DNA of 64,000 nt from assembly GCA_965224245.1 (NCBI GenBank), contig OZ245046.1:320001-384000 (forward strand), read 5' to 3'. Under the pieces are notes generated by a model. The model saw only the letters and a program-made list of their open reading frames with translations, was not told where the DNA came from and ran no database searches. Below are positions 21,748 to 54,900 of the stretch, one piece after another (position 1 is the stretch's first letter; each line of letters starts with the position of its first letter). This stretch comes from Candidatus Eiseniibacteriota bacterium (GTDB taxonomy: Bacteria > Eisenbacteria > RBG-16-71-46 > CAZAMP01). The position numbers were made by a program, and so were the translations under genes.

Positions 21748-24390
21748 ATGACGTCCGACCGGCTTCGACGCGCGCGAGCGATCCTCGCGCGGGCACACGA
21801 GGTCGACCCGGCGGAGCGAGAGGCGCTGGTCTCTCGCCTGTCCGAGGGTGACGAGGATCTCCGCCGCGAGGTCATGTCTCTCCTCGCGCACGATGCGCCG
21901 ACCGCCGGGCTGAAGGAGCGGATCGACGTGGACGCCGTGGGCGCGCTCGTCGAGCGCTTGCGGGCGGGTTCGGCTCGAACGCCCGAGCGGATCGGGAGCT
22001 ACCGGGTGATCCGGCTGCTCGGGGAGGGGGGGACCGGAGCGGTCTACGAGGCGGAGCAGCAGAGCCCACGGAGGTCCGTGGCGATCAAGGTGCTCCGTCA
22101 CCGGCTCCTCGACGACTACCGCCGCCAGCTCATCCGGCGCGAGGCGGCGGCGCTCGCACGACTCGATCATCCGAACATCGCCGGCATCATCGAGGCCGAC
22201 GAGGTCGACGGCGAGCCGTTCGTCGTGATGGAGTGTGTCCGGGGCACGCCGCTGTCCCAGTTCCTGAAGGAGCCGGCGGGGCAGGCGCTCTCGGTCCGCC
22301 AGAGGATCGAGCTGTTCCTCCAGATCTGCGATGCCATTGCATACGCCCACCGCCGGGGGGTCATTCACCGCGATCTGAAGCCGTCCAACGTCATCGTCAC
22401 CAGCGAGACCGAGAAGCCGTCGGTCAAGGTGCTGGACTTCGGACTGGCGCGCTTCACCGACGCCGACGTGACGCTGGTCACGATGAGCACCGAGACCGGG
22501 CGCGTGCAAGGGACGCTCGCATACATGAGCCCCGAGCAGGCACGTGGAGATCCGAACCAGATCGATCTTCGATCCGACATCTACTCCCTGGGTGCGATCC
22601 TCTACGAGATGCTCACCGGAGAGCGGCCGAGCCAGCTGTCCGATCGCTCGCTCGCGGAGGCGGTCCGGATCATCTGCGAGGACGATCCGCCGTCGTTGAG
22701 GACGCTGGATCGGACCCTCGACACCGACCTCGACACGATCGCGATGAAGGCGCTCGAGAAGCCTCCGGACCGCCGGTATCAGACCGTGACCGCTCTCGCC
22801 GGCGATCTCACGAGATGGCGCCAACATGAGCCCATCACGGCCAGGCCCCCGACGCTCGCGTACCAGCTGGGCAAGCTGATGCGACGACATCGCCCGGTGT
22901 TCGCGCTGGGAGCGGCGTTGCTGGTGGCCGTGATCGCGTCGGCGGTGGTCACCTCCGTGCTCCTGTACCAGCAGACGCAGGAGCGCGAGCGGGCGGAGCG
23001 GGAGGTCGTGCGTGCCACCCGCGAGGCGCGAAAGGCCGACCAGATCAACGCGTTCCTGCGCGACATGCTGGTGGCGGTGGATCCGCGACGCGAGGGGGCG
23101 GACGTAACGGTGAGAGAGGTCCTCGACCAGGCCGCGCGCGATCTCGTGGGGGCGTTTCCGGACGAGCCCGAGGTCCGGGCGGCGCTTCACAACAGTCTGG
23201 GGCAGGCCTACTACGGCGTGGCGGTGCTCGATTCGGCCCGCACCCACCTCACCCGCTCGATCGAGATTCAGCGTGAGATGCGCGGGGCGGCGGACCCGGC
23301 CGTGGTCAGGGGCCTGGCGGCCCTCGCCACCGTGGCCAGCCGCGAGGCCCGGAATGCGGAGGCGGAGTCCCTCCTGGTGGCGGCGCTGGCCATCGATCCC
23401 GAGAACATGCCCCGCGACGAGACGTTCGAGCTCCAGCAGGAGCTGGCGGTGGTGATGCACGGCCAGGGGAAGACCGCCGAGGCCGCCGCTCAGCTCCGGA
23501 GCGCGATCGACACGTATCGCGCCGCCGGCGGCGCATACAGCGAGAGTCTGCTCCAGGCCCTGACGAACCTCGCCGCGCTGGCCCAGATCCGAGGCGACTA
23601 CGGCGAGGCGGAGACCGCCACGCGCGACGTCCTGGCCCTGGCCAGAGAGCATCACGGCGACGACCATCCGCTGGTGTTCGCCAACCTCTCGAACCTCGCG
23701 CAGCTGCTCTCGCGCCAGCGGCGAGAGGAGGCCGGCGAGGTCTTCGCAGAGGCGCTCGCGCTCGGTGAAGAGGTCTACGGCGCCGAACATCCCGAGGTCT
23801 CGACCTGTCGGAACAACTACGCCGGCTACCTGAACCGCAGCGGTCGCCATGCCGAGGCAGAGGTCCTGGTCCGGCGGTCGATGGAGATCGATCGTCGAAC
23901 GCTGGGGCCGGATCACCCGTCCATCTCGTCGGGCCTTCAGCAGCTCGGGTTCGCGTTGCGGTCGCAACATCGATTTGCCGCGGCCGAGTCGGTGTACGTC
24001 GAATCGGTCAGGATCCGTCGGGCCGCCTACGGGCCCGACCATCCCTCGGTCGCGTACGCGCTCTACGGACTCGGGACGAGCGTGCTGGAGCAAGAACGCC
24101 CCGCCGACGCGATCGAGCCGCTCGAGGAGTGCCTTCGCATCCGACGCGCGCACCATCCGGGTACGACGACCAACGTGGCCCTGCCGGCGTTCCTGGTGGG
24201 CGTCTGCATGGGAGCGCGTGGGTGCAGCGCAGTGGCCGAGTCGCTGATCGTGACGAACGCGGCCGTCATCCTGGATGCCGACCAGACCTCGGACCAGAGC
24301 CGCCGGGACACGCTCCAGCGGGCGATCGACTACTTCGATCGGTGCGACCCGAAGCGGGCCGAGTCTTACCGTGCGCAGCTGACGGAGTGA
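21748..24390 (+). CDS. Membrane Ser/Thr kinase with N-terminal helical extension and C-terminal TPR repeats
   Basis: LGEGGTGAV, HRDLKPSN, DFG, YMSPEQ; TM VFALGAALLVAVIASAVVTSVLLY; G.(D/E)HP-type TPR repeats; immediately downstream of the ECF gene. Confidence 0.93.
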   Translation: MTSDRLRRARAILARAHEVDPAEREALVSRLSEGDEDLRREVMSLLAHDAPTAGLKERIDVDAVGALVERLRAGSARTPERIGSYRVIRLLGEGGTGAVYEAEQQSPRRSVAIKVLRHRLLDDYRRQLIRREAAALARLDHPNIAGIIEADEVDGEPFVVMECVRGTPLSQFLKEPAGQALSVRQRIELFLQICDAIAYAHRRGVIHRDLKPSNVIVTSETEKPSVKVLDFGLARFTDADVTLVTMSTETGRVQGTLAYMSPEQARGDPNQIDLRSDIYSLGAILYEMLTGERPSQLSDRSLAEAVRIICEDDPPSLRTLDRTLDTDLDTIAMKALEKPPDRRYQTVTALAGDLTRWRQHEPITARPPTLAYQLGKLMRRHRPVFALGAALLVAVIASAVVTSVLLYQQTQERERAEREVVRATREARKADQINAFLRDMLVAVDPRREGADVTVREVLDQAARDLVGAFPDEPEVRAALHNSLGQAYYGVAVLDSARTHLTRSIEIQREMRGAADPAVVRGLAALATVASREARNAEAESLLVAALAIDPENMPRDETFELQQELAVVMHGQGKTAEAAAQLRSAIDTYRAAGGAYSESLLQALTNLAALAQIRGDYGEAETATRDVLALAREHHGDDHPLVFANLSNLAQLLSRQRREEAGEVFAEALALGEEVYGAEHPEVSTCRNNYAGYLNRSGRHAEAEVLVRRSMEIDRRTLGPDHPSISSGLQQLGFALRSQHRFAAAESVYVESVRIRRAAYGPDHPSVAYALYGLGTSVLEQERPADAIEPLEECLRIRRAHHPGTTTNVALPAFLVGVCMGARGCSAVAESLIVTNAAVILDADQTSDQSRRDTLQRAIDYFDRCDPKRAESYRAQLTE

Positions 24391-27428: not shown

Positions 27429-30377
27429 TCATCCCGTGCGGAGATCGCGAAGCCGGCGCCGGGCATCCTCGATCTCGGCGATCCGCGGATCTCCGCCGTC
27501 CACGATGGAGAGGAACTGCACGAGCTGCGCGACGGCGTCCTCGGGCCGTCCGACGTTCTGGTAGCAGATGCCCAGGTGATAGTAGGCCCGGGCCGAGTCC
27601 AGGCCACACTGCAGTCTGTCTCCGTCATACCAGGTGACGGTCGTCTCCAGCAGCCCGATCGCCTTCTCCCACTGGCGAGTCTCCACGTAGCAGCGGCCGA
27701 GCGGGAGCCGGGTCCAGATCCAGTTGGCGCTCTGCGCTCTCTCCAGGTAGGAGATGGCCAGGTCCAGCTCGCCCCGGGTCATCTCCAGGTTGCCGCGAGC
27801 GACGTAGTAGTACGCCTGCAGGACGCTCGTCGAGCTGTCCTCGCGAGCGATGTACGGTTCGAGGTATCGATGGCTCTCCTCGACGGCTCCCACCCTGGCC
27901 AGCACGCTGGCGGCGTCGATGAGATCGAAGTCGTTCTCGGGTGGCGCGATCTCGAGCGCCCGATGCACGGCGGCCACGGCGCCGCTCCGATCGCCGATCT
28001 CTTGGAGGAGGAACCCACGCTGCTCGTGCCGAGCCGCCATGGTCTGGGAATGGACGCCTTCCATCTGGTCTACGGTCAGGGCCGCATCGATCTGACGCAA
28101 CGCTTCTTCGACCCGGCCCCGATAGGCCAGCAGCCCGATCAGCCCGGTGCGACCCCTTGCACGGGTCTCCGCGTCGGGACTCGCGAACAGATGGCGGAAC
28201 TGGCTCTCGGCCTTCTCGTAGTCGCCGTGAAACGCGTACATGTCGCCCAGCTTCGCCGCCGACTGGTAGTCGGCGAAGTCCGGCTTCATCTCGACCGCCT
28301 TCGCGTAGGACGCGATCGCCTCCTCGAGCCGGCCGTGCCGCGCGAAGATGTCGCCACGCGAGTCGTACGGGTTCGGCTCGTCCGGTGCCAGCTCGATGTA
28401 CGTGTCGAGCTCGTGGATCGCGCGATCCAGATCGCCCACCGCGCTGTAGGCGTACGCCAGCTCGTTGTGCACGGTCTTGTCGAGCGGATCGAGTGCCAGG
28501 AGCCTCTCCGCGTACTCGATCGCCTTCTCGGGCGGTCCCAGAATGCCGTACGCTTGCCGGAGACCCTCCAGGGCGTGCTTGTCGTCGGGGTACGTCTCCA
28601 GCACACGCTCCAGGGACGCGATGAATCGATCGGGGTCCGACGCCAGCCACGCCTCGGCGCCTTCGAGGTACATCTGCTCCCGGGTCGACGCCCGGTCGGC
28701 ATGTCGGACGGCCTGTGCGAGGTACTTCCGATCTCCTCGAGAACCGCCCAACCCTCCCAGCCGATAGGCGGCCATGGCGAACGTGGAGTCGATGGCGAGC
28801 GCCTGGAGGTACGCGTCCCGGGCCTCCTGGTTGAAGAACTTGCGCTCGTTCTCGATCCCCTCGAGATAGAAGCGGTAGGCATCCTCGGAGTTCGTGGACA
28901 GGCTCGCCACCGAGGGGGTCGTCTCGGCCGCCGACTCTTCCGTACCACCGAGGTCGTCCAGCGTCTCCTCGGTGATCCGGTCGACGAGCACGAAGATCGA
29001 CTCGCCCGGCACGCCGGTCGTCCGCTGAGACGCCACGACGTTGCCCGTCGCCACCTCCACGATCTGAGAGGTGACGACGTAGGCCGGCTCGGCCTGGAGA
29101 ATCGTCCCCTGCATCATCAGCCGGGCGTCGGTCCGCCTGGCCACGTCGGTGGCCGTGTCGCGGTCGATCCGGCGTTCGCCTTCACGCCCCAGCTGCTTCA
29201 AGACGTCGTAGAGGCGCTGGCTGGACACGACCCTCATGTTCGCCGCTTCCGAGAGCCCCGTGATCAGGAGCTCGGACACGATTTCCCCGTGACGCTTCGG
29301 ATCCTCCGGCTCCGCGAGGTTCTCGAAGTACATGATGGCGAGCGTGTTCGTGTCGGCCCCGGCCCCCGGTTCGGGTGTGACCCGGAGCTTCCACGGATCG
29401 AGGATCAGGAACGCCGCGAGCGCCGCGACGGCGACCAGCGCGCCGATCCCGACGCGCGCGTCGACGCGTGGCCTGCCGGGACCGACGGCCCCCACCGACC
29501 CGGTCGACGAGCCCACCTCCACCTGGAGCGACTCCAGCATGTTGGCCACGTCGAGGGCGCTCTGGAGGCGTCTTCGCGGGTCCTTCTCCAGACAGTGCTG
29601 GATGATGCGACCGAGCTGATTGGGGAGCTCGCTCCGGATCGCGGTCACGCTCGTCGGCGTGTCCTTGAGGACGGACGAGAGGCGGGACAGGCTCGTCTCG
29701 CCGTGAAACGGCTGACGACCGGTGGCCATCTCGTAGAGCAGGACGCCCAGCGAGAAGATGTCGGAGCGGGCGTCGACCGGCTTTCCCTCCGCCTGCTCGG
29801 GCGACATGTAGGCGACGGTGCCCAGGACCGTGCCGGCCGCCGTGTCGGGCGAGTCGTCCAGCACCGTCTCCGCCTCCGCCACCTCGTCGTCCGTTCGATC
29901 GAGGAGCTTGGCCAGGCCGAAGTCCAGCACCTTCACGCGGCCCTCGGCATCGACCATCACGTTGGCCGGCTTGAGGTCGCGGTGCGTGATGCCTGCGGCG
30001 TGAGCGCCGTGCACCGCCTCGGCCAGGGGGATGGCCAGATGGAAGAACCGAGAGAGCGGGAAGCCCCCCGACGGGAGCAGCTCGGAGATCGTCTTGCCCT
30101 CGACCAGCTCCATGGTCAGAAAGACGCGCCCGTCGGCCTCCTCGACCGAGTGAAGGGTCACGATGTTCGGGTGCGTGAGGGACGCGACGGCCCGGGCCTC
30201 GCGTTCGAAGCGGCGGCGGCGCTCCTCGTCGTGCGCCACGTCGGCGGGCAGGAGCTTGAGGGCGACGTCACGTCCCAGGCGCGTGTCGCGCGCGCGATAG
30301 ACCTCGCCCATCCCGCCGGCGCCGAGCGACGCGAGGATCGTGTAGCGTCCGAGCTGCGATCCGATCGTCAGTGACAT
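27429..30377 (-). CDS. Membrane Ser/Thr kinase with TolB-N/FlgO-like domain and TPR repeats
   Basis: [65 protein letters not shown]; TPRs. Confidence 0.92.
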
Positions 30378-35563: not shown

Positions 35564-36145
35564 ATGCCCGACCGGCCCGTGCCCGACGTCGCCGCATTCC
35601 TGCGTACCACATCGGCGGGTGCCTCGCCCTCCGACGTGGAGATCGACCGTCTCTTCGCGGTGCTCTACGTGGAGCTGCGGGCAATGGCGGGCGGAATCCT
35701 GTCCGACCAGGTGACCCACCGCACGCTGACCCCCACCGTGCTCGTCAACGAGGCGTATCTGCGCCTGGCTCGCGGTGTCCAGACGAGCTGGCAGTCACGC
35801 GCTCACTTCCTCGGCGTTGCCGCGAAGGCGATGCGGCACGTGCTGGTCGACTATGCCCGGCGGCAGCGGGCGCAGCGACGCGGCGGCGACTGGAAGCGCG
35901 TGTCCATCCCGTTCGATTCGGAGATGCCGGCCACCGCGCCGGAGGCCGACGTCATTGGGCTCCACGAGGCGCTCGAGCGCCTCGGATCGGAGGACCCCCG
36001 CATGGCCCAGGTGGTCGAGCTACGGGTGTTCGCGGGACTGTCCGCAGAGGAGACCGGGCACGTCCTGGGGCTTTCGCGTCGGACGATCACCAAGCACTGG
36101 AAGGTGGCGTGCCTCTGGCTCGCTCACGAGATGTCCGAGGAGTGA
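35564..36145 (+). CDS. ECF RNA polymerase sigma factor, TIGR02999 (ECF43-like) family
   Basis: LYVELRAMA, RTLTPTVLVNEAYLRL, AMRHVLVDYAR, ELRVFAGLS. Start chosen by GAGG RBS and length match to its paralogues. Confidence 0.9.
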   Translation: MPDRPVPDVAAFLRTTSAGASPSDVEIDRLFAVLYVELRAMAGGILSDQVTHRTLTPTVLVNEAYLRLARGVQTSWQSRAHFLGVAAKAMRHVLVDYARRQRAQRRGGDWKRVSIPFDSEMPATAPEADVIGLHEALERLGSEDPRMAQVVELRVFAGLSAEETGHVLGLSRRTITKHWKVACLWLAHEMSEE

Positions 36146-36195: not shown

Positions 36196-37230
36196 GTGAT
36201 CCAGGTCATCCTGACGGTCATCCCGCTCACGGTCGCCGCGGCGGGCACCGATCCGATCCCCACCGATCCTGTCCCGAGCCACCGTATGTGTCCCGAATAC
36301 GTGCTGAGCTGGGGGGAGCGGGGCGTGGGCCCGGGGAAGTTCCAGGCGCCGCGGGTGGTCGCGCTGGCGCCCGACGGCGACGTGCTCGTGCTCGACACCC
36401 GGTCCTACCGGGTTCAGCGGTTCTCCGCGAACGGCAGCTTCGAGCGCGAGTGGCACGCGTCACGACCCTCCGACGTCGATCCGCCCCACGGGCTGGCCGT
36501 CGGCGACGACGGACGGATCTACGTCTCGCACGTCGGCCGCATCGACGTCTTCGATCCCGAGGGACGTCTGTCCCGGGTGATCGAGATCGAGGGCAACGTG
36601 GGAGCCATCTCGGTGTCGGACTCGCAGGGGATCGCCGTGCTGATCGGGACCCACGAGGTCTGCCGGCTCGCACCCGACGGAGCCGTCCGCGCCCGTTGGG
36701 GTGGCGACGGGGACGGCCCGGGGCAGTTTCGCTGGGCGAGCGACCTCGCGATCGGTGCGGGGGAGGTCGTGTACGTGCTCGATCGTTCCGAGGCTCGCGT
36801 GCAGTGCTTCTCACCCGACGGCGAGCTGCTTCGCGCCTGGGGCGGGCGGGACTACGCAGCCGTGCACCTGCAGCAGCTAGCGGCCATCGCCTGTCATCCC
36901 GATGGCCGGGTCTTCGTCGTCGATTCGCCGAGCAAGCGGGTCCTCGTCTTCGACGCGCTCGGCGAGCTGCTCTGCACCTGGGGCGAGGGCGGACGCACGC
37001 CGGGCACCTTCGACAGGCCCGTGTCGATCACCGTCGGTCCGCTCGGTGTGTACGTGTGCGACGAGGCAAGAGCGCGCATTCAGCTCTTTCGCGAACCCGA
37101 GAGTCGGATCCGTCCGGTGATCTGGCCCGCGGCTCGCCGGTGGCTGAACGCTGAGGACGTCACCGATCCCGAGGTGTCTCGAACGCCGCCGCCCGGTCAG
37201 GCGTCCCCCAGGCCTCGTAAAGACCGATGA
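36196..37230 (+). CDS. NHL-repeat beta-propeller protein, probably exported
   Basis: WGERGVGPGKFQAP, RVQRFSANG, GDGPGQF, RVQCFSPDG, PGTFDRP repeats; hydrophobic N-terminus. Start approximate; the 3' end overlaps the convergent kinase by 71 bp. Confidence 0.8.
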   Translation: MIQVILTVIPLTVAAAGTDPIPTDPVPSHRMCPEYVLSWGERGVGPGKFQAPRVVALAPDGDVLVLDTRSYRVQRFSANGSFEREWHASRPSDVDPPHGLAVGDDGRIYVSHVGRIDVFDPEGRLSRVIEIEGNVGAISVSDSQGIAVLIGTHEVCRLAPDGAVRARWGGDGDGPGQFRWASDLAIGAGEVVYVLDRSEARVQCFSPDGELLRAWGGRDYAAVHLQQLAAIACHPDGRVFVVDSPSKRVLVFDALGELLCTWGEGGRTPGTFDRPVSITVGPLGVYVCDEARARIQLFREPESRIRPVIWPAARRWLNAEDVTDPEVSRTPPPGQASPRPRKDR

Positions 37231-39664
37231 GGTCCGCACGAACCTCGTCGCGCATCGTCTGAGTGCCGGCGCCGCCATCCGCGAGCCGGCGGTCGCTGGC
37301 CAGGAACAGGGACTCGGCCGCCGCGTAGCGGTGGAGTCGCATCAGGCAACGACCCAGCAGGCGGTCGGTCTCGGCGAGCAGGATCGGCTGGTCCAAGGGC
37401 CCCAGAGCCAGCCGTAGACGTCGAAACACCGGCTCCGCCTCCTCGGGACGGCCGAGATCCAGGAGCGAACGACCGAGGCCCAGGAGCATTCCGGTCGCGT
37501 TGAGGTTCTCGTCCCCGATCAGATCGGCCGTGATGCCGAGCGCCTCGCGGTACATGGGCTCGGCCTCGGTCGGCTGTCCGAGCGCGCGCTTCACGTCGGC
37601 GTGGTGACTGAGTGCCAGGGCATAGGAGCTGTTCGGACCGTTCCGCGCGAACATGTCCGGGAGGATTTCCCGGTAGAGCGAGTCCGCGATCTCGAAGTTC
37701 CCGGCGAGCCGGTGCATGCGCGCGCGCCTGGTCGGGATCGATCCGATCAGACTCACGCTGTCCCCGAAGGTCTCACGCAAGAGGGCTCGACTCCGCGCGT
37801 ACAGGGAATCGGCGTGGCGTATGGCGCCCCGGGCGTCCTCCAGCAGAGCCAGACGGTACAGGGCGAGGGCGATCTCGTAGCGATCGTCGGTCGATGCGGT
37901 CCGTCGTGAGAGTACGCGCGTGAGCGCGGCGCCGGCCTCGTCCGTCTCGCCGTTGGCCAGCATGACATTGGCCAGGTTCAGCTCGAGCTCCAGCAGCCGG
38001 GGATCGTCGCCGCCGCGTTCGACCCGAAGCAGCGAGAGCGACTCGTGGTACAGAGACTCGGCCTCCGCGTAGCGACCGCGCGTGGCATGGATCGAGGCCA
38101 GGTCCGCCAGCAGGTCCACGCGACGCTCGACGTTCGCTCCCGCGCTCGCGGCCAGCGCTGCGCGAAGCTCGCGCTCGGACTCGTCGAAGAGATCGAGGTT
38201 CCGGTAGGCGTGCCCGAGAAGCGACCGCACCTGCAACACCAGGTCCGGATCGGCGAGCGTCTCGCCGGTGCGTCGCGATGCCTCGTCGAGCACGATTCGT
38301 GACGTCGTCGCGCCGAGCACGCCCGTCAGGTACTCGTTGACGCTCTCGGTCCGTGCGCGTTCCCGACGCTGCTGCTGCCAGAGGAACGACATCGCCACGC
38401 TCGTTCCCACCGACACCACGAAGATCACGGTGAGCAGGGAGACGACGGCGCGATGTCGCTGCACCATCTTCCTCACGGCATAGAGCGTCGACGGGGGACC
38501 GGCCGTCACCGCTCGTCCCACGAGATACCGCTCGACGTCCGAGGCGAGATCCGAGGCGGACTGGTAGCGCCGCTCGGGCTCCTTCTCCAGCGCGCGCATC
38601 GTGATCCACTCGAGCTCTCCGGTGAGCCGTCGGAGCAGCTCGCGGGGGGTGGTCGCCCGTGCACCGGCGACCCCGGCCGCGGCCTCGCCGAGCTCGGAGA
38701 CGCGTGCGGCGGGCGACGGGGGAACGACGTCGCGTATCAGCCGGATCGCTCGCTCGAGCCCCTCCGCGTGCAGATCGTCGGGATCGAGCGGGAGGACTCC
38801 GGTCACCAGCTCGTAGAGCAGCACGCCGAGGGCGTAGACGTCGGTGCGCGAGTCGATGGCACCGGGCCGGAAATCGGCTTGCTCGGGGCTCATGTACTCG
38901 GGCGTCCCGATCACGTGTCCGGCCACGGTGCCATCGGCGCCGGGAAGGCCGGACGTCTCCAGCGACTTGGCCACGCCGAAGTCGATCACCTTGGGAATCG
39001 GTGTTCCCTCGACCTCGGTCACCAGGACGTTCGTCGGCTTGATGTCCCGGTGGATGATGCCCTTGCGATGGGCGTGCTCGACCGCGCGGCACACCTGACC
39101 GAACAGCCGGAGGCGTTGCCCGATCGTGAGGCGGCGCTCGTCGCAGTACGTCGTGATCGGCGGACCGTCCACGAGCTCCATGACGAAGAAGGGGCGTCCG
39201 GCGTCGGTGGTTCCCGCCTCGAAGATCCGCGCGATGTGGGGATGCTCCATCAGGGCCAGCGCCTGGCGTTCGGTCTCGAAGCGAGCGATCACGTCGCGCT
39301 CGTGCATGCCGCCGCGGATCACCTTCAGCGCCACGTTCCGGCTCAGGGGGCCGGTCTGGTGGGCGAGGTAGACGCTTCCCATCCCACCTTCGCCGATCGC
39401 ATCGATGATCCGATAGGGTCCGATCGTCGTGCCCGGTGGGATGCCCGCGGCAACGGGGGGCACACGCGCGCCGAGCAGTCGGTCGACCGGAGCCGACGTG
39501 GCGAGAATCGACGGCAGGTCCTCCGCGGACGCCATGATCGCCCTGACGCGGCGCTCGAGGTCCGGATCGCCGTCGCACTGCTCCGCGAGGATGGCCGTGT
39601 GCCTCGACGGGTCGGCATCCACCAGGATGGAGAGAATCTGACGTATCCGCTGCGAGCTCGACAT
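37160..39664 (-). CDS. Membrane Ser/Thr kinase with N-terminal helical extension and TPR repeats
   Basis: AGGAG RBS; IGEGGMGSV, VALK, HRDIKPTN, DFG, YMSPEQ; TM AVVSLLTVIFVVSVGTSVAMSFLW; TPRs. Confidence 0.92.
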   Translation of the reverse strand: MSSSQRIRQILSILVDADPSRHTAILAEQCDGDPDLERRVRAIMASAEDLPSILATSAPVDRLLGARVPPVAAGIPPGTTIGPYRIIDAIGEGGMGSVYLAHQTGPLSRNVALKVIRGGMHERDVIARFETERQALALMEHPHIARIFEAGTTDAGRPFFVMELVDGPPITTYCDERRLTIGQRLRLFGQVCRAVEHAHRKGIIHRDIKPTNVLVTEVEGTPIPKVIDFGVAKSLETSGLPGADGTVAGHVIGTPEYMSPEQADFRPGAIDSRTDVYALGVLLYELVTGVLPLDPDDLHAEGLERAIRLIRDVVPPSPAARVSELGEAAAGVAGARATTPRELLRRLTGELEWITMRALEKEPERRYQSASDLASDVERYLVGRAVTAGPPSTLYAVRKMVQRHRAVVSLLTVIFVVSVGTSVAMSFLWQQQRRERARTESVNEYLTGVLGATTSRIVLDEASRRTGETLADPDLVLQVRSLLGHAYRNLDLFDESERELRAALAASAGANVERRVDLLADLASIHATRGRYAEAESLYHESLSLLRVERGGDDPRLLELELNLANVMLANGETDEAGAALTRVLSRRTASTDDRYEIALALYRLALLEDARGAIRHADSLYARSRALLRETFGDSVSLIGSIPTRRARMHRLAGNFEIADSLYREILPDMFARNGPNSSYALALSHHADVKRALGQPTEAEPMYREALGITADLIGDENLNATGMLLGLGRSLLDLGRPEEAEPVFRRLRLALGPLDQPILLAETDRLLGRCLMRLHRYAAAESLFLASDRRLADGGAGTQTMRDEVRADLIGLYEAWGTPDRAAAFETPRDR

Positions 39665-45700: not shown

Positions 45701-45779
45701 CGCCCGCGAGGGCGGGGCCGAGCAGCAGTGTGATCGCGGCGGTGGACAGCACGAACGGACGAATGCATTGACGGGACAT
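42744..45779 (-). CDS. Secreted CLCA-like zinc metalloprotease + vWA + beta-sandwich domains + FlgD-Ig/T9SS-like CTD
   Basis: Signal peptide; EEASRLLFNAT, LVHEIGHYAFGTYDEY, CIM..EFC..HN..SCWDTI; MIDAS DVSSS; LFDDG..DDGAYGAIF; FDVAGRR..WNAR..PGRYFYR. Confidence 0.85.
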   Translation of the reverse strand: MSRQCIRPFVLSTAAITLLLGPALAGDGSIDGDKLDISVMFAYREAEPDSWRPLFEEASRLLFNATNGQLQLGTVRVTSCGYDKDGADVWIMDNDAGALANVLGLSGIGHIFLSQTHKSITEPAIGQYGLVHEIGHYAFGTYDEYKGVVIPVRHAGSPIAEQTTTFRVPNQFCVTEDDPVGCIMDGGTTVAPNNGRTEFCTHVGNGLATTHNEGIVVGGERYVNAQEALNGESCWDTIARIVGFVPPTEVDGSDPAGLEPLVWEVASADVRIILCIDVSSSMAGTQFDRTMAAALELVDLLHARKEIDTGEETILLDGDTFALTTFTGDASIPFPLTEITDEAVRDAARATLDDLGPLGSTDVAIALDAAMAILRDASTIPACSEAIVLISDGIDIEGADPESLVPELVERGVKFFTVSPGGEASDERLRDLAVSAGGQYFRIENEREIPVLMGEIVSEARDGALLFGEEGVLGEDFTSIPILIDGFGEEVTTVVGWEVGSLDLILTSPMGETIDVGSAATDPRVEAYQRDGFIYIRVIQPADGTWIARLERLSDEPVPYRFAAFVESRALSLSLSTDATDYAFPDPVRLRADLVATVPVAGANVSARVRRPGGTTIDIPLFDDGDPAHGDTFGDDGAYGAIFDTYSGDGLYVFEVTATNVDGTGPDQDLPFVEEGGGSTALAIPPFTRTETISVALRGAPAPATGVLSVEPPTLNTGSEGRFITARIELDPPLDAASIDPSTLWFMDVVRAETWPVSLGDADEDGIPDLSVKLDRAAVIAALPIELDVPVDISGTAAGTYFRATGTLSLFDPQGDVATGVDLTLPVAVGTILSLSWDAMPEPDASYRGFLSRDGGTTWKMIFEGVAALTHDWVVTGPATPQALVVVQGRSREATTHQATTTGFVIVDGTVATPPSTPAYVTRVLAVAPSPSRGSTHVSYSLATDGDVRIEIFDVAGRRAATLVDGVQAAGVHRAAWNARTSSGAPVPPGRYFYRFTAGAVEETGEILVVR

Positions 45780-45904
45780 CGGTGCAACCCCCGGGCTCGG
45801 AGCGGCGACGTGGATGACGGATGGGACAACACCCAACTCGTCAGTTTATCACGATTCGAGGAGTCGATTGCCGGGCGCCCCCGCGATCCGAGAAGGTCCG
45901 AACG

Positions 45905-48900
45905 CTAATCGGTAGCCCCGGTGGCGACCAGAATTGCGGTGTCCCGATCCAGGCTCCGACCGCGGTTCCAGGCGGCCGAGAATGCCTCCGCACCGAGCGC
46001 CCGCTCGAGCGCCGTGCGGTTCTCGTTCAGAAACTCCGAGATCTGCGGGAGTGTGTGGGACCCCGCGGCCCGGGTGCGATCGTCCCAGCTCGCCAGGAGC
46101 GTCGCCGCCCGGGCCGGATCGTCGCTCCGGCGAGCCAGGCGGACGGCCTGCTGGATGGCATCGGTGATCAGGCGCTCGTCGCCGAACTCCTGCACGGTCA
46201 ACAGGCTCTCGGCCAGGAGCGCCCGGGTCTCGCTCTCGTCGCGGGAGTCCACCGTGATCGCGACCAGGTTCAGCAGCACGATCGCGACCGACGAGCGATT
46301 GCCCAGCTCACGGAACATCCGAAGACTCTCCTCGTAGTGCTCGATCGCACACCGGTCGTCACCGGCAGCCCGGGCCAGGCGGCCCAGGTTGTTGAGCGCC
46401 GTCGCGATGCCCGAGCGATCCCCGAGCTCGCGGAGAATGGACAGGCACTCGTCCAGTAGCGTCCCGGCCTGGGCCAGGTTCCCGGTTGCCTCCTCCACCG
46501 TCGCCAGGTTGTTCAGCGATGCGGCCACGTTGTTCCGGTCCCCCTGTCGCCGGCGGATGGCCAGGCTCTCGGTGTATGCCGCGCGGGCGTCCTCCAGGCG
46601 TCCGGTCAGAAAGGCGACCGCACCGAGCCCGTTGAGTGCGAGGGCGACGCCTCCCTCGTTCCCGACCGCCTCGTACGTGCGGTGGCTCTCTCGATAGTGG
46701 GCCTCCGCGGCGTCCCACTCACCGAGATCCCGGAGGACGTTCCCCAGGTTGTTCAGGGACTCGGCGACCGCCGTGGGCTCGCCGAGCTGCCGGCGAATGT
46801 CCAGGCTCCGTTCGAGCAGAGCGCGTGCCTCGGCGTACTCTCCCTGAAGCTTCGCGAGATTCCCCGACCAGCTGAGGCACAGCGCGGACGCGGCGTCGAT
46901 CCCCGGCTCGGCGGCGTCGAACAGCCGGTGGTACGCGGCTCGTCCGGCCTGCCAGCGTCCGGCCACGACCCAGTACCGACCGAGCGCGCCGGCCAGTCGT
47001 GCGGCCCCGCCGAGCTCGCCGGTGTCGAACAGTGTCTCCAGAGCACGCTGGAGGTTGTTCTGGTCGGTCCGCAGCCGGGTCAGCCACTCGACCTGGTGCG
47101 ACGTCGTCAGCTCCGGTGCAGCCCGCTCGGCCAGAGTCACGAAGTACATGGCGTGCCGCATCGCCAGATCGGCGAGCTCCTCGGCCTCGGTGAGCCGCTC
47201 GCGCGCGTACTCGCGCACGGTCTCCAGCATGCGATAGCGCGTGGAGTCGGTCGACGAGTCGGCGACGCGTACGTCCACGAGCGACTTGGAGACGAGCTCG
47301 GAGATCAGATCCAGGACCTCCCACTCCTCGATCCCGTCGACCGCACAGACCGTCTCCGCGGCCTCGAGCGTCCATCCGCCGGAGAAGACCGACACGTAGC
47401 GCAGCATCCTCCGCTCGGTGTCGTCCAGGAAGTCGTAGCTCCAGTCGATCAGCTCGCGAAGCGTCCGGTGGTGCCCCGCGGCCTGACCGCGCCTGGAGCC
47501 GAGGACGCGGAAGCGGTGGACGAGCCGCGCGTCGAGGTCGTCCACCGAGAGCACGCGGAGCCGCGCGGCGGCCAGCTCCAGCGCCAGCGGGATTCCATCG
47601 AGGCGCCGGCAGATGCCGGCGACCACGCCCGCGTTCTCGGCGTCGAGCACGAACTCGGGCCGCGCCGCCCTGGCGCGATCCACGAACAGCCGGACGGCAT
47701 CGTTGTCGACCAGATCCTCGAGACACGTCGCGGCGTCGACCGGGGGAGGAGTGAGCGTCGAGATCGGGAACACGACCTCGCCGCTCTCACCGAGCGGCTC
47801 CCGGCTCGTCGCCAGCACGAAGAGCGCACGGCAGCTCTGCAGGAGCGATCGCACGACCCGCCGGCAGTCGTCGAGCACGTGCTCGCAGTTGTCCAGTACG
47901 AGCAAGACGTGCCGTTGCGCCAGGTGCGACTGGAGGCTCTCGAGCGGGGACTGTCCCGGTGCGTCACGCACCCCCAGGACGCGTGCGATGGCGCCCTCGA
48001 TGCCGCCCGCGGCGGTCAGGCCCGCCAGCTCGATCAGCCACAGCCCGTCGAACCCGGTGGAGACGAGCTCCCGTCCGACCTCGACCGTGAGCCGGCTCTT
48101 GCCGCCGCCCGCGGGGCCGGTAACGGTCACGAGTCGATTCTCCGCGACCAGCTCGACGAGCGTGGACAGCTCCCGCTCACGACCGACGAAGCTGCTGATG
48201 GACGCCGGGAGGTTGTTCTCGGCGCCGAGGTCGCCGGGCGATCCGTCCCGGGCCCGGAGCGTGGCCTGGATCTCCTCGAGCGCCTGCCGGAGCGCCGTCA
48301 TGCTCTCGAGCCGAGCGCCGGGATCCTTCTCCAGGCAGTGCATGACCAGGAGCCGGAGGGGATGGTCGGGCGAGAGCTCGCAGTCCGACAGCTCGGGGTC
48401 CACGGTCAACGTTCGGTTCAGTCGATCGCGGATGGTCGAGCCGGGGAACACCGGACGCCCCGTCAGGAGCTCGCCGATGATGCAGCCCAGCGCGAAGACG
48501 TCGGTACGCGCATCCTCCCGCGCGCCCCGGATCTGCTCTGGGCTCATGTACCCCGGTGTTCCGGCGATCTGGCCGCCACCTCTGTTGCCGGCGTCGCGAC
48601 CGGCGCCCTGCTCGATGCTCGACTCCAGCGCGAGCGCGATCCCGAAGTCGAGCACCTTGACCTCGCCATCCGAGCGGATCATCACGTTCTGCGGCTTCAG
48701 GTCGCGGTGAACGATCCCTTGCTCGTGCGCCGCTTCGACCGCCATTGCGATCTGGCGGCAGATCCGGACGATCTCCTCGAGACTCCCGGAGTCATCGGGT
48801 CGCCAGCCGGCGAGCGAGACGCCGTCGATGAACTCCATGGTCAGGAAGATCGTGCCGTCGGCATCCTCGAGCGAGTGAACCGTCGCCACGTTGCGATGAT

Positions 48901-49258
48901 TGAGCGCGGCCAGCAGCTGCGCTTCACGTCGGAAGGCGATGAACGCGTTGCGATCGGTGGACAGGACGTCGGGCAGGATCTTCAGCGCGATGCGTCGGCC
49001 GAGCTGAGGGTCTCGCGCGACGTACACGACTCCCATGCCACCCCGGCCGAGCTCACTCAGGATCGGATAGCGTCCGATCGTGCTAGGGTACGAGTCCGCA
49101 CCGAGTGCGATGGTCTCGTCGGACGACGTTGCGACAGTCCGTGCGGTCGCGCCGGCGTCGGGCGGAGATGCAACCTCGGTGTGCGGCGGATCGCCGGCGA
49201 TCGTCGGGATGTCTCCCGTGTCGGCGTCCGGCTTGTCGGGATCGCGACGACTCGTCAT
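45905..49258 (-). CDS. Ser/Thr kinase - STAND (NB-ARC/AfsR-like) ATPase - TPR fusion
   Basis: HRDLKPQN, DFG, YMSPEQ; NNLP..SFVGRE, Walker A GPAGGGKS, Walker B LLVLDNCEH, ATSRE, GIPLALELAAA; TPRs. Confidence 0.92.
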   Translation of the reverse strand: MTSRRDPDKPDADTGDIPTIAGDPPHTEVASPPDAGATARTVATSSDETIALGADSYPSTIGRYPILSELGRGGMGVVYVARDPQLGRRIALKILPDVLSTDRNAFIAFRREAQLLAALNHRNVATVHSLEDADGTIFLTMEFIDGVSLAGWRPDDSGSLEEIVRICRQIAMAVEAAHEQGIVHRDLKPQNVMIRSDGEVKVLDFGIALALESSIEQGAGRDAGNRGGGQIAGTPGYMSPEQIRGAREDARTDVFALGCIIGELLTGRPVFPGSTIRDRLNRTLTVDPELSDCELSPDHPLRLLVMHCLEKDPGARLESMTALRQALEEIQATLRARDGSPGDLGAENNLPASISSFVGRERELSTLVELVAENRLVTVTGPAGGGKSRLTVEVGRELVSTGFDGLWLIELAGLTAAGGIEGAIARVLGVRDAPGQSPLESLQSHLAQRHVLLVLDNCEHVLDDCRRVVRSLLQSCRALFVLATSREPLGESGEVVFPISTLTPPPVDAATCLEDLVDNDAVRLFVDRARAARPEFVLDAENAGVVAGICRRLDGIPLALELAAARLRVLSVDDLDARLVHRFRVLGSRRGQAAGHHRTLRELIDWSYDFLDDTERRMLRYVSVFSGGWTLEAAETVCAVDGIEEWEVLDLISELVSKSLVDVRVADSSTDSTRYRMLETVREYARERLTEAEELADLAMRHAMYFVTLAERAAPELTTSHQVEWLTRLRTDQNNLQRALETLFDTGELGGAARLAGALGRYWVVAGRWQAGRAAYHRLFDAAEPGIDAASALCLSWSGNLAKLQGEYAEARALLERSLDIRRQLGEPTAVAESLNNLGNVLRDLGEWDAAEAHYRESHRTYEAVGNEGGVALALNGLGAVAFLTGRLEDARAAYTESLAIRRRQGDRNNVAASLNNLATVEEATGNLAQAGTLLDECLSILRELGDRSGIATALNNLGRLARAAGDDRCAIEHYEESLRMFRELGNRSSVAIVLLNLVAITVDSRDESETRALLAESLLTVQEFGDERLITDAIQQAVRLARRSDDPARAATLLASWDDRTRAAGSHTLPQISEFLNENRTALERALGAEAFSAAWNRGRSLDRDTAILVATGATD

Positions 49259-49457: not shown

Positions 49458-49757
49458 GAGGTGAGTGACCCGGACGACGGCATCGAGACGGGGAGGCGGG
49501 CCCACACGGACACCCGGGACCACCGGGTCGCGCCGTTCGCCAGCAAAGGTCCTTTACAATGGGCCCGGTTTGGTGGGTAACATGCCTGATATCGAGGTCT
49601 CGGGCGGGTCGTGGGGGGGAATGGCTGACAGAAGCCACCACACATTCAATTCACGATTCGAACATACGGTCCGTGCTAGGCTCTTTCTCGAGTGCCCGCA
49701 CTGCAACCCCAAATCTCGCCGCTCGCGGCGAGGCAACTTCCGGCAGGAGAGACACTA

Positions 49758-50873
49758 ATGAGCATCAACACCATGCGATCGCTGTCGATCGCGAGCGCCG
49801 GTCTGGGAATCGTGCTCCTGGGCTGCTTCCGACCGGCGGGCGACGGGTCCTCGGACTCCGTCACGGCGCCGGAGACGACGCCGCAAGCACGGGCGAGTGA
49901 GCTCCAGGCGCTCGATCTGGAGTCGCTCCCCACGGGGACGATCGTCGATCAGCTGTTCGGGACGCTCGGTGACGGACCGGTGCTGGTCAATGGCATCAGC
50001 CCGCTTCTCGCCGGCAACACGGCGATCATCTTCGACTCCGCCAATCCCACCGGCGGCGACTGGGATCTCGGCAGCCCCAACGAGACGTGTGGGGGTCCGG
50101 GACAGGGTGCCGGCGGCGAGGTCGGCTCGCCGTACGAGAACTGCGATCCGCTCGGCAAGGTGCTGATCATCGCGGCCGACCTCGAGGACGCGGGCGGTGA
50201 CGGCCTCGTCGACGATCCCGACGACATCGACGTCGCGGCGCTGGACGGCGTGATCATCGAGCTCGACTTCTCGGCGCTCGGGACGGTCACGATGCACAGC
50301 CTGAACGTCCTCGACATCGACGGGAACGGTCCGGACCCGCGCGTCGAGATGTACGGCGTCGGTGGCGTCCTGCTCAGCACGGTTCCGATTCCGAACGACA
50401 TGGAGAACAACGGTGCGGCCACCGTGGATCTCGGGGACGTCTCGGGCGTGGTCGACGTCACCGTGTACCTGCAGGGCTCGGGCGCGATCGACACGTTCTT
50501 CTTCCGCTGCGACACGCCGCCCGGAGGCGGAGAGGGCTGCACGCCGGGTTACTGGGGTCGTCGTCATCACTTCTGCCACTGGCCGGCCCCGTACGAGACG
50601 GACACCGCGTTCTCCGACGTGTTCGGTCGCGACGTTCCGGACGTCACGACGCTGCTCGACGGCCTGCACTCGCAGGGTAGCTACAAGAACCTCGTGTTCC
50701 ATGCGGTCGCGGCGCTTCTGAACGCGGCGAGCGACGAGGTCGACTTCGACTACGACGTGGCCGACGTGATCGCCATCTTCCAGGACGGCTGGGACAGTGG
50801 CGACCTCGAAGGTGCCAAGAACCTGCTCGCGGGCGCGAACGAGAGTGACTGCCCGCTCGGGAACTGCCGATGA
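49758..50873 (+). CDS. Acidic lipoprotein with C-terminal GCTPGYW..AALLNA helical domain
   Basis: AGGAG RBS; lipobox LLG|C; IFDSANPTGGDWDLGSPN; GCTPGYW..HAVAALLNAA; ends CPLGNCR. Confidence 0.82.
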   Translation: MSINTMRSLSIASAGLGIVLLGCFRPAGDGSSDSVTAPETTPQARASELQALDLESLPTGTIVDQLFGTLGDGPVLVNGISPLLAGNTAIIFDSANPTGGDWDLGSPNETCGGPGQGAGGEVGSPYENCDPLGKVLIIAADLEDAGGDGLVDDPDDIDVAALDGVIIELDFSALGTVTMHSLNVLDIDGNGPDPRVEMYGVGGVLLSTVPIPNDMENNGAATVDLGDVSGVVDVTVYLQGSGAIDTFFFRCDTPPGGGEGCTPGYWGRRHHFCHWPAPYETDTAFSDVFGRDVPDVTTLLDGLHSQGSYKNLVFHAVAALLNAASDEVDFDYDVADVIAIFQDGWDSGDLEGAKNLLAGANESDCPLGNCR

Positions 50874-51084: not shown

Positions 51085-51663
51085 CTATTCGGGTAGAGGT
51101 TCCGAGGTCCCGCCGGTCAGCTGCGTTCGAAGCCAGCGGCGCGCGAACTGCCAGTCACCGTTGACCGTTTTTCGAGAGACGCCACAGATCGACGCGATCT
51201 CCTCACCGGTCAGTCCGGCGAGGATCTTGAGCTCGACGACCCGGGACACGCGCTCGTTGGCCAGGCGGAGACGCTCGAGCGCACGGGCCAGATCCGACGC
51301 CGGCGCGATGATCTCCTCACCGCCCGCGGCATCGTCGGCGAGCTCGACGCGGGTCCACCCGTGTCCGCGCCGCACCGTCTTGCGCGCCCGGGCGTGATCC
51401 ACGAGCACCTGACGCATGACGCGGGTGGCGATGCCGAGAAACCGAACGCGGTCCTCGCCGTCCAGCTCGGCGCGGGCGGCGAGACGCAGGTAGACCTCGT
51501 TCAGGAGCGCAGTCGGTTGAAGCGTGTGGTCGTCGCGCTCGTGGCGCATCTCGCGGCTCGCCATGCGCCGGAGCTCCCGGTAGGCGACGTCGAAGAGCTG
51601 GTCGATCGCATCCCGCCGGCGGTCCTCGTCGGTCCCCTCCGGTCGATCGTCGTGGACGCTCAT
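51085..51663 (-). CDS. ECF RNA polymerase sigma factor, TIGR02999 (ECF43-like) family
   Basis: GGGAG RBS; AYRELRRMA, DHTLQPTALLNEVYLRL, VMRQVLVDHAR, DWQFARRWL. Confidence 0.92.
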   Translation of the reverse strand: MSVHDDRPEGTDEDRRRDAIDQLFDVAYRELRRMASREMRHERDDHTLQPTALLNEVYLRLAARAELDGEDRVRFLGIATRVMRQVLVDHARARKTVRRGHGWTRVELADDAAGGEEIIAPASDLARALERLRLANERVSRVVELKILAGLTGEEIASICGVSRKTVNGDWQFARRWLRTQLTGGTSEPLPE

Positions 51664-51926: not shown

Positions 51927-54900
51927 TTGAGTGAACCGGACCTGAACCGGCTGCGGGACCTCGTCGTCGCGGTGCTGGATCTACCCGCCGAGGAACGAGA
52001 CTCGTATCTCGAAGGTGCATGCGGCGGGGACGACACCCTCCTGTCGTCGGTCAAGCGGCTCCTGAACGAGGAGCCGATCGATGCCGACAGGTCTCACGCG
52101 CTCGACGCCGTCGGGGGCGACGAGGCGATCGCGAACGCGGCCGCGCTACCCGAGCGCGTCGGGCGCTACGAGATCCTCGGGCGCCTGGGTGCGGGTGGGA
52201 TGGGCATCGTGTACCTGGCCGTGGATCCGAGCCTGGACCGACGGGTGGCCCTGAAGGTCCTCCCGCCTCGACTCGCGGGCGATGCCGCCGGAATCGCTCG
52301 CTTCCGCGAGGAGGCTCGCCTTCTCGCGCGGCTCAATCACCCGAACATCGCGACCATCCACTCGCTGGAGGCGGCGGGAGAGGTGGTGTTCATCACGATG
52401 GAGCACGTGCACGGGCCGACCCTGGCCGCCCGGATCGGCTCCGACGCTCGCGACGACGAGCTGCGCATCGCCTACGAGATCGCGTGCGCGCTGGAGGCGG
52501 CTCATGCGAAGGGGATCGTGCACCGCGACCTGAAGCCGTCGAACGTGATCGTCTCGTCGGAGACAGGCACGGTGAAGGTCGTCGACTTCGGACTGGCCAA
52601 GCTGGCCCGAGAGCGGAGTGATTCCCCGGCGGCGGCCGCCGCGCCTGCTGTCCCGTCGGCGTCCATCGATGCGTCGTGGTCGCTGGTGCTGGGGACGCCC
52701 GGCTACATGAGCCCCGAGCAGGTGCGCGGCGAAACCACCGACGAGGGTAGCGACATCTGGGCGTTCGGGTGCGTGCTGTACGAGCTCTCGACGGGGACGA
52801 GGGCGTTCGATGGATCCGCCGTCGACCGGATGGTGGCCACACTGGCCAGAGACGTCGATCTGGAGTGCGTGCGCGGACGTGCCCCCGACGCCGTTCACGA
52901 CCTGGTCGAGAGGTGCCTCAGGATCGATCGCGACGAGCGATTGCGGTCGATCGCCGAGGCCCGACGGATTCTCGGATCGCTCCTACAGGTTTCGGCCTCG
53001 TTCCACGGCGATCTCGATGCTCCGACGGCCACCGAGTCGCTGGCAGAGACGCTGCCGACGTACACGACTCGCCTCGTGGGGCGGGAGCGCGAGATCGACG
53101 AGATCTCGACACTCCTGACCGATCGTCTCGTCGTCACGTTGACCGGCTTTGGCGGAGCGGGGAAGACGCGCCTCGCCACCGAGGTCGCCCGCCGGTCGGC
53201 CGATCGATTCCCCGACGGCTGCTGGTTCGTGGACCTGGCCCCGGCCAGCGACGAGGACGACGTCCTGCAGCTGACCCTGTCGGTGATGAATCTGCGCGAG
53301 ACGGCGGGAGAGTCGCCGGTCGACACGCTCGTGAGCTTTCTTCGGACCCGGCGCGCGCTCGTGATTCTCGACAACTGCGAACAGGTCGTCGACGCGTGCT
53401 CGGCACTGGCCGCCATGGTGACTCGCGGCTGCCCCCGGACACGCGTGCTCGCCACAAGTCGTTCCGCCCTGTTCGTCGGCGGGGGGCAGATCTACGCCGT
53501 CGCCCCGCTCGCCCGTCCCGCCGCCGACGGTGCGTTCGACGAGGCCCGGCGCTCGCCGGCGGTGACGCTCCTGGAGGACCGCGCAAAGCTCATCGACATG
53601 AGCTTCGAGCTGTCCGAGAGCAACTTCCGGGCGGTCTCCGAGATCTGTCGGCGTCTGGACGGCCTGCCGCTGGCCATCGAGCTCGCGTCGACGCGCCTGG
53701 ACGCGATGACGCCCGACGAGCTGCTCGAGTCTCTCGAGGGTCGCCTGCCGCTGCAAGGTCACGGGCCGGCCGGGCCGGATCGGCATCGGAGCCTGACGGG
53801 GCTGGTCGCGTGGAGCTACGACCGGCTCTCCGACGCGGAGCAGGCGTTTCTCCGACGGCTGTCGGTGTTCCGCGGAGGTTGGACGTTGCGTTCGGCGGAG
53901 GCCGTTTGCTCCGACCCCGGATCCGAGCTCGTGCCGGCCTGGCAGGTGCTCGATCTGACCCGGACGCTCGTGCAGCGGTCGCTGATCGAACGTGCCACCG
54001 TCGTCGCGGGGGGACTGGAGCGATCCCGGTACGGCATGCTGGAGACCATCCGGACGTACGCCGCCGACCAGCTCCACGCGCACGGGGAGGAGGAGGCGAT
54101 CCGGGCGCGACACGTCCAGTACTTCCTCGCGCAGCCGACCGACCCCGGTCACGACGGCACGACCTCCGCCACGTGGATCGCCCTCGTCTCGGCCGACGAC
54201 GACAACTTCACCGCGGCGCTGTCGGAGCCCTACCGGCGATCGATCTCCCTGTTCGAGGCGACGTCCCTGGCGCGCCAGCTGCTGCACTACTGGACGGTGA
54301 CCGGGCGCTGGAGACGCGGGCAACGCGTCTACCAGAGCCTCGTCGACGCGATCGTCCGGGAGGGGCAGACGGGGACGCGACATCACGCGGAGGCAGTGGC
54401 CGGCGTCGGACGTCTGGTCGCGCTTCGGGGAGAGAACGACCTGGCCCGGAAGCTCCTGACCGAGGCCCGCCGGATCGGCCTCGAGATCGACGAAGAGGAC
54501 GTCGTCAGCGTGTGCGACACGGGCCTCTCCTATCTCGCTCGCATCGAGCGCCGCTTCGACGAGGCGCTCGAGCTGGCCGATCGGCGCGTTCGACACTGGG
54601 AGCCGCGGTGCGGGAGCGCTGATGTGCCGACGCCTCAGGAACGGAGCGTCCGGCGGCACCTGTCGGCGGCGCTCCTGGATCGCGGGCAGTGTCTGGCCCG
54701 GTTCGGACGGTTCGACGAGGCGGGCGCCGACTTCGAATGGGCCCACGAGCTCGCGAGCTCGGTCGGCGACGTGGGCGGCTCCGCCCTGCCCCGCGCCGCC
54801 CTGGCCGGCGTCAAGCACCGGACCGGAGACGTCGACGCGGCGCGCGATCTCTATCTCGAGGCGCTCGCGTACATGCGAACGGCGAAGCAGCGCGACAACA

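Follow-up and report, generated by a model that had tools for sequence, protein, structure and literature searches.

Introduction

How does a kinase that activates a sigma factor find its own partner in a genome that encodes dozens of such kinases and dozens of such sigma factors? This question is raised by a 64,000-nucleotide stretch (the window; G000:C1:320001-384000, G+C 68-70%) of the 6.94-Mb assembly of a Candidatus Eiseniibacteriota bacterium, our source genome, referred to as G000. Three Hanks-type Ser/Thr kinases of the window, each encoded close to an extracytoplasmic function (ECF) sigma factor of the TIGR02999 family, share an N-terminal extension, and this extension is the subject of the present work. 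As far as we found, it is an unnamed domain with no assigned function and a hallmark of the kinases that act on ECF43 sigma factors. ECF43 sigmas are the model case of a sigma factor activated by direct phosphorylation, and the 44 parallel sigma/kinase pairs of the source genome sharpen the question of how a kinase finds its own sigma. In the portions of the literature available to us, we found no account of how an ECF43 kinase does so.

Three kinases of the window share an N-terminal extension

We scanned 35 candidate open reading frames (ORFs) of the window with Pfam and identified six Hanks-type kinases (Pkinase) and three PF07638 sigma factors (E-values of 1e-40 to 1e-49), at the positions given in an initial annotation made from the sequence alone. 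All three sigmas score above the TIGR02999 cut-off (166.8-193.4 bits versus 126.15). The initial annotation had also noticed a common N-terminal motif in the kinases starting at 21748, 39664 and 51927. This observation holds, as the three N-termini align with one another and each is matched by a hidden Markov model (HMM) of the extension (Table 1), while the kinases at 5191, 30377 and 49258, described as lacking the motif, give no match to the model. Each window sigma has an extension-bearing kinase adjoining it or one gene away (3/3). The reported contrast in adjacency, three of three kinases with the extension against none of three without it, survives only in its first half: kinase 49258 is a single gene (49692-50873) away from the sigma at 51085, which makes the second count 1/3 by the annotation's own rule. 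That sigma has its own extension-bearing partner adjoining on the opposite strand. Taken alone, the window counts are weak evidence of linkage.

The extension is linked to TIGR02999 sigma genes in the source genome

We then searched six-frame ORFs of the whole genome with HMMs for which the kinase domains, sigmas and extensions of the window served as seeds. The extension HMM, which was iterated without any sigma information, converged at 46 matches, 44 located before a kinase domain and 2 on short ORFs that have none. In total, the genome encodes 99 kinase ORFs, 44 with the extension, and 44 TIGR02999-type sigmas, a number also returned by an independent profile search. A TIGR02999 sigma lies within 3 kb of 33/44 extension kinases and of 5/55 other kinases (Fisher p ~1e-11). 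Thus, the genome-wide check suggested in the initial annotation returned linkage, not an equal frequency of the extension on kinases with and without a sigma nearby. Among the 33 linked pairs, the sigma is upstream on the same strand in 23, divergent in 4, convergent in 3, and downstream on the same strand in 3; counted from the sigma side, 36/44 sigmas have an extension within 3.5 kb.

The five linked kinases that lack the extension comprise two bystanders of already-paired sigmas, one sigma-kinase fusion, and two possible extension-less partners. A relaxed search for the extension in those non-extension kinases with an N-terminus of more than 30 residues gave a best E-value of 0.016; kinase 5191, with fewer than 31 residues before its kinase domain, falls outside this search. 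Chance or low complexity as the source of the motif is ruled out by within-genome E-values down to 1e-25. At one locus (G000:C1:1764554-1768740, + strand), three TIGR02999 sigma genes stand in a row upstream of a single extension kinase at 1768587.

The extension and TIGR02999 sigmas occur together across the phylum

For other genomes, we used the 46-row extension alignment (A2) as the profile. Across 12 class-level relatives, the extension and TIGR02999 sigmas are present in exactly the same 7 genomes. In these relatives, a same-strand sigma lies no more than 750 bp upstream of 18/21 extension matches; of the remaining three, one is 4.2 kb from a sigma and two have none nearby. We also analyzed an even sample of 61 genomes from the phylum, all at least 90% complete and with the source genome included. 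Extension and sigma are both present in 40 and both missing in 21; in 0 genomes does one occur alone. Their numbers also rise together, with a Spearman correlation of 0.98 over the 60 genomes other than the source, which sum to 169 extensions and 174 sigmas. Pkinase is found in 61/61 genomes, including the 21 that lack both extension and sigma, which carry from 1 to at least 34 kinases; the co-occurrence is therefore not a by-product of having kinases.

The source genome is the extreme of this sample, with 47 extension matches by the A2 profile and 44 sigmas, the next highest values being 21 and 23. It has seen a large lineage-specific expansion, as the other 60 sampled genomes range from 0 to 21 extensions and from 0 to 23 sigmas.

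The window loci fall within the ECF43 sigma/kinase system

Searching the PDB with the extension profile gave a sole significant match, residues 8-56 of chain 9eed_A (E 7.6e-9; next best E 0.022). The matched chain comprises PknS(1-364) from Xanthomonas citri (PDB 9EED; PMC13147305), a kinase that directly phosphorylates the ECF43 sigma EcfK (PMC13147305). When a whole kinase was the query, 9eed_A aligned from query residue 7 onward, and PknB from residue 74-78. By profile comparison, the extension is thus homologous to PknS residues 8-56. A profile was needed to see this relationship, because a single-sequence search of the PDB returned spurious designed armadillo repeats and 9eed_A at E 0.31 only. 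In the PknS crystal, the first 81 residues are invisible; the structure predicted for them is one of three to four antiparallel helices carried by a flexible linker (PMC13147305). The part of that paper available to us proposes no function for these residues and does not discuss them as a family.

ECF43 sigmas are distinguished by the replacement of the acidic DAED motif of region sigma-2.2 with a QTTA-like motif, whose Thr is phosphorylated (PMC13147305, PMC8999054), and they are intrinsically inactive until this happens (PMC8999054). Across the 44 sigmas of the source genome, columns 56-59 of the sigma alignment (A3) hold Q in 27/44, P or T in 37/44, T in 42/44 and A in 33/44, that is, Q-[PT]-T-A; the first window sigma reads Q-P-T-E. 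Judged by these shared hallmarks rather than by a classifier, the TIGR02999 sigmas described here would be of the ECF43 type. As the extension matches PknS and the sigmas carry a Thr-bearing Q-[PT]-T-A motif, the window loci are, on sequence grounds, new members of the known ECF43 system. The extension itself had been seen before, in PknS, and was not studied there as far as the available part of the paper goes.

In EcfK/PknS too, a sigma with Thr in region 2.2 is encoded beside a Hanks-type kinase, whose residues 8-56 are matched by the extension profile. EcfP/PknT of Vibrio parahaemolyticus, also ECF43, is similar in that DAED is missing from the sigma and a Thr found there instead is phosphorylated by the kinase (PMC8999054). 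However, PknS belongs to a single proteobacterial pair that controls a type VI secretion system, whereas the 44 sigmas and 47 extension matches of the source genome are from a different phylum and come with varied sensor parts.

The extension is a predicted three-helix domain on diverse kinases

The extension is ~50-60 residues long and sits 10-37 residues upstream of the kinase domain. Among its 46 members, the conserved positions are an Arg (45/46), an Asp (37/46), a Cys (32/46) and several Leu/Val, and the mean net charge is -5.2 over ~61 residues. AlphaFold2, run on the extension alone with the 46-row alignment, gives three helices (residues 3-16, 21-31 and 36-49) at a mean predicted local distance difference test (pLDDT) score of 85.5, with the helices at ~90. 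Modeled in context (kinase 1, residues 1-361; mean pLDDT 86.6), the helices recur at 3-16, 21-31 and 36-48, and are followed by a linker at 51-60 with pLDDT <50, a weaker fourth helix at 61-73, and the kinase domain. According to these models, the extension is a folded, acidic three-helix domain on a flexible linker, an arrangement that, with the weaker fourth helix, is also like that predicted for PknS.

This domain is widespread without having been named as a family. None of the 46 members matches a Pfam family below E 1e-3, and NCBIfam returned nothing significant. In the ESM Atlas, the nearest clusters to the extension are only unnamed 'hypothetical protein' clusters, and a single-sequence search with residues 1-75 against a set of 5.8 billion proteins recovered only the query itself. 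With the profile, 73,015 of 1.84 billion cluster representatives match at E ≤0.001, and 22,681 at E ≤1e-10. From the best 150 of these, we scanned the 37 that are at least 250 residues long, and Pkinase follows the extension in 37/37; the other 113 are shorter and probably mostly fragments. A word-indexed search likewise found PF00069 in 77/78 longer matches, under source names that all vary on 'serine/threonine protein kinase'. In the literature searched, supplementary files aside, we found no paper that names the extension or gives it a function, to the extent that the papers were available.

Behind the kinase domain, the 37 long matches carry TPR, PD40, WD40, AAA_16/NB-ARC, FGE-sulfatase, guanylate cyclase or ankyrin parts. 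The initial annotation had called the motif a portable module because it sits on both TPR and STAND kinases in the window, and the description also fits elsewhere, given the PD40, WD40, FGE-sulfatase, cyclase and ankyrin proteins and at least five changes in its presence on the kinase tree (see below). Tandem copies also exist: one kinase of the source genome has two extensions (C1:90578-90739 and 90797-90970, + strand), and a public protein of 1156 residues (P0002) has ten extension-matched stretches before its kinase domain.

The sigma as the probable constant partner of the extension

Three ORFs of 1214-1287 residues carry an N-terminal TIGR02999 sigma fused ~30 residues before a kinase domain, one in the source genome (G000:C1:2978589-2982230, - strand) and two in another genome, G005 (L092:1146-5006, - strand; L093:384-4190, + strand). 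In 3/3 of these fusions, the extension is absent. On a tree of kinase domains, the fusion kinase of the source genome branches next to the main extension clade, at a fork that is not resolved. We checked nine more sigma matches within long open frames as candidate fusions, and none is one; the frames are over-extended, a common feature of high-GC DNA.

The extension is also found beside sigmas on proteins that are not kinases. Two extension-only ORFs of ~70 residues adjoin TIGR02999 sigmas in the source genome (G000:C1:1063441-1063659, + strand, L094; 1212478-1212687, - strand, L095). One of the two begins right at the sigma stop codon, and both 4-kb loci lack a kinase domain. In a third genome, a 579-residue protein (G021:C29; L111:1014-2750, - strand) joins an N-terminal extension to AAA_16 with no kinase domain, and its gene begins ~23 bp downstream of a TIGR02999 sigma.

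These proteins bear on a rival explanation, in which the extension is a kinase-intrinsic module for autoinhibition, activation, dimerization or localization that travels with the sigma through common operon descent and never touches it. Such a module would be expected directly N-terminal to the kinase domain, where the extension is in 37/37 and 77/78 full-length proteins, and it could do without a neighboring sigma, as 11/44 extension kinases do within 3 kb. Moreover, 26/44 extension kinases form one clade on the kinase-domain tree (98/99 kinases, one short domain having been dropped). On the same tree, however, 12 changes are required to explain where the extension is present, well-supported branches force at least 5 of these, and kinase 3 of the window stands among extension-less STAND kinases. 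A module intrinsic to kinases also fits poorly with its absence from the three sigma-kinase fusions, its retention beside sigmas on kinase-less proteins, and the finding that 0/61 genomes have the extension but no sigma. Finally, the extension diverges in step with the sigma no less closely than with its own kinase domain. In Mantel comparisons of the 33 linked pairs, extension and sigma distances correlate at r 0.28, with a partial r of 0.24 when the kinase domain is controlled for (10/2000 permutations as high); for the extension and its own kinase domain, the partial r is 0.14 (93/2000 as high). We consider a purely kinase-intrinsic role unlikely. Collectively, these data point to the sigma, not the kinase domain, as the constant partner of the extension. 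The suggestion in the initial annotation that the extension sets kinase-sigma specificity is weakly supported by the same partial correlation.

A known sigma-binding motif occupies the same position on a sister kinase

Outside the window, a STAND-type kinase (G000:C1:4379107-4382556, - strand) is sister to an extension kinase with a Shimodaira-Hasegawa-like approximate likelihood ratio test (SH-aLRT) support of 97. In the N-terminal slot of the extension, it has a zf-HC2 zinc anti-sigma motif, H-x3-C-x2-C, matched at 23.2 and 18.1 bits in two scans against a cut-off of 22.2. The kinase start and the stop of a canonical ECF sigma gene, which encodes Sigma70_r2 and r4_2 domains, overlap (L106:1-1614 and 1611-2894, - strand). 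By its domain content, this protein is an anti-sigma-domain/kinase fusion. As the kinase with zf-HC2 lies beside a canonical ECF sigma, this position is held by a known sigma-binding domain where the partner sigma belongs to a different type.

H-x3-C-x2-C is the motif of class I zinc-binding anti-sigma domains. The extension resembles these domains in being a small helical N-terminal domain of a signaling protein encoded beside an ECF sigma, and in having its slot filled by zf-HC2 on the sister kinase. It differs from them in profile, in lacking the zinc motif, and in the class of its partner sigma. An alignment of the extension with the 10 zf-HC2 segments of the source genome, none of which is in the window, gave an hhalign probability of 0.8%; PF13490 matches 0/46 members below E 1e-3; and the extension alignment lacks H-x3-C-x2-C, as it has one conserved Cys (32/46) and no conserved His or second Cys. 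Homology of the extension to anti-sigma domains, which the label 'anti-sigma-like' in the initial annotation could imply, finds no support in these comparisons or in Pfam. Structural searches with the extension model were less telling. Foldseek against the PDB reached a best E of 3, with nothing at E ≤0.001. In VIA-align against ~48,000 chains, the highest Z was 6.0, and the 50 matches listed are generic helical ones that include no anti-sigma chain; a helical bundle of ~50 residues is too small for either search to discriminate.

Even without homology, the extension could act as anti-sigma factors do, binding the sigma and keeping it from RNA polymerase until phosphorylation frees it, and so be an inhibitor rather than a mere tether. 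The genomic evidence for binding serves this explanation just as well, as does the zf-HC2 motif in the same position on the sister kinase. It would also account for the composition of the loci: kinase-associated ECF groups, ECF43 among them, typically have no separate, co-encoded anti-sigma factor (PMC7826278), and no anti-sigma family for which a Pfam model exists was found among the 35 window ORFs. Nevertheless, as ECF43 sigmas are reported to be inactive until phosphorylated (PMC8999054), an inhibitor would be redundant, and the sequence comparisons above, together with the fold matches listed (a weak test for so small a domain), speak against it. Sequestration therefore seems improbable to us.

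A model in which the extension tethers the sigma

We propose that the extension binds its cognate sigma and so keeps this substrate close to the active site of the kinase, as a tether, a model that we hold to be evenly balanced between right and wrong. In this model, the extension of a Hanks-type kinase would bind the cognate ECF43-type (TIGR02999) sigma and hold it next to the active site, with the flexible linker of 10-37 residues giving the kinase the reach to the Thr of region sigma-2.2. The kinase would then phosphorylate this conserved Thr in the Q-x-T-A motif, a step that is established for EcfP/PknT and EcfK/PknS (PMC8999054, PMC13147305). In the source genome, the tether would keep 44 parallel sigma/kinase pairs apart. 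Sigma docking, as the initial annotation suggested it, gains indirect support from the extension-less fusions, the kinase-less extension proteins and the zf-HC2 positional analogue; the contact itself, and its contribution to specificity, are what we infer from them. Complex prediction with sigma 1 (alignment A3) and extension 1 (A2) scored 0.63 in three runs, compared to 0.54 for an unrelated-protein control, and counts neither way.

Several points weigh against the tethering model. The contact between extension and sigma is deduced rather than observed, and by sequence or fold searches, the extension resembles no known sigma-binding domain. In addition to the 11 extension kinases with no TIGR02999 sigma within 3 kb, 8/44 sigmas have no extension within 3.5 kb; strong as it is, linkage in cis is thus not a requirement. 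Because the genomes share ancestry, as do the paralogues, the data are less independent than the Fisher, Spearman and Mantel figures suggest. As so many extension kinases belong to a single clade, the association could largely reflect shared operon descent. The Mantel correlations are small, and kinase domain and sigma distances correlate equally well (r 0.27). Finally, the two ORFs made up of the extension alone may be what is left of decayed kinase genes.

The extension might instead bind another component shared by these pathways, such as RNA polymerase, a phosphatase or the membrane. Its acidity would suit many basic surfaces. Yet this would leave unexplained why the extension is dispensable in sigma-kinase fusions and why extensions and sigmas are present at ~1:1, and the Pfam scan of the window revealed no gene other than the sigma and kinase genes conserved beside the pairs. 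We find a partner of this kind very unlikely.

Returning to the tethering model, a broader version of it would make the extension a new class of substrate-recruitment domain, dedicated to sigma docking and replacing the anti-sigma factor as the pairing element, with a variable surface that insulates paralogous pathways, such that swapping a 60-residue cassette would rewire the kinases. We put this version forward tentatively, as somewhat short of an even bet. Substrate-docking modules of Hanks-type kinases in general are non-catalytic modules that recruit a substrate to the kinase. The idea is shared and no homology is implied; the extension is tied to one sigma family.

In either case, a widespread domain with no defined family name is present on the one crystallized partner kinase, where it is invisible in the crystal. 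If it docks sigmas, this would explain the insulation of the pathways, provide a sequence marker for predicting kinase-sigma pairs that are encoded apart, and supply orthogonal synthetic circuits with a part that can be swapped. If it does not, the strict co-occurrence of extension and sigma still needs explaining.

Gene organization of the window

The features of the three sigma/kinase loci and the comparator kinases are listed in Table 1.

Table 1. Sigma factors, kinases and N-terminal extensions in the window (window positions).
Feature	Position	Strand	Evidence
ECF sigma 1 (TIGR02999/PF07638), 192 aa	21108..21686	+	Pfam E 1.2e-48; TIGR02999 193.4 bits
Hanks-type Ser/Thr kinase 1, 880 aa	21748..24390	+	Pkinase E 9.2e-47; TPR_12/TPR_10
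Kinase 1 N-terminal extension, aa 1-61	21748..21930	+	extension HMM E 2.8e-15
ECF sigma 2 (TIGR02999)	35564..36145	+	PF07638 E 5.3e-46; TIGR02999 173 bits
Hanks-type kinase 2, 834 aa: extension, kinase domain, TPR	37160..39664	-	Pkinase E 1.4e-38; TPR families
Kinase 2 N-terminal extension	39488..39664	-	extension HMM E 1e-14; row L032 of alignment A2
ECF sigma 3 (TIGR02999)	51085..51663	-	PF07638 E 5.9e-40; TIGR02999 166.8 bits
Hanks-type kinase 3: extension, kinase domain, NB-ARC/AAA STAND NTPase, TPR	51927..55514	+	Pkinase E 4.4e-44; NB-ARC; AAA_16
Kinase 3 N-terminal extension	51927..52085	+	extension HMM E 3.2e-13; row L043 of A2
Comparator kinase without extension; kinase domain from aa 10	5191..7464	+	Pfam; no extension HMM match
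Comparator kinase without extension; kinase domain from ~aa 12 if start 30377	27429..30377	-	Pfam; no extension match, relaxed search included
Comparator STAND-type kinase without extension; 65-aa N-terminus	45905..49258	-	Pfam; no extension match, relaxed search included

Sigma 1 and kinase 1 share a strand, the sigma gene being 61 bp upstream, and kinase 1 consists of the extension, a kinase domain (residues 85-345), a hydrophobic stretch and TPR repeats. Sigma 2, in an ORF open from 35291, probably starts at ATG 35564. A single gene, encoding an NHL-repeat protein (36109-37230), separates it from kinase 2, which is convergent with both. Sigma 3 probably starts at ATG 51663 and is divergent from kinase 3. 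The start of kinase 3 is less certain than the initial annotation implied: position 51927 is a TTG, and GTG 51852, ATG 51834 and ATG 51744 are alternatives. The kinase domain of comparator 49258 starts at residue 66 and groups with that of kinase 3 on the kinase-domain tree.

Interspersed with the sigma/kinase pairs are genes for large predicted secreted proteins (858-3689, 8959-13614, 24481-27066, 30761-33457, 42744-45836, 58096-60435, 60504-61850 and 61908-63479). These contain beta-helix, PD40 propeller, VWA or BNR/sortilin-like parts and a C-terminal domain that is FlgD_ig-like or, for one of them, a Por_Secre_tail sorting domain; they are possible targets of the sigmas encoded among them. 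The window also contains an 875-residue ORF (40038-42665, + strand) in which an MFS transporter domain is joined to a spermidine-synthase-like domain.

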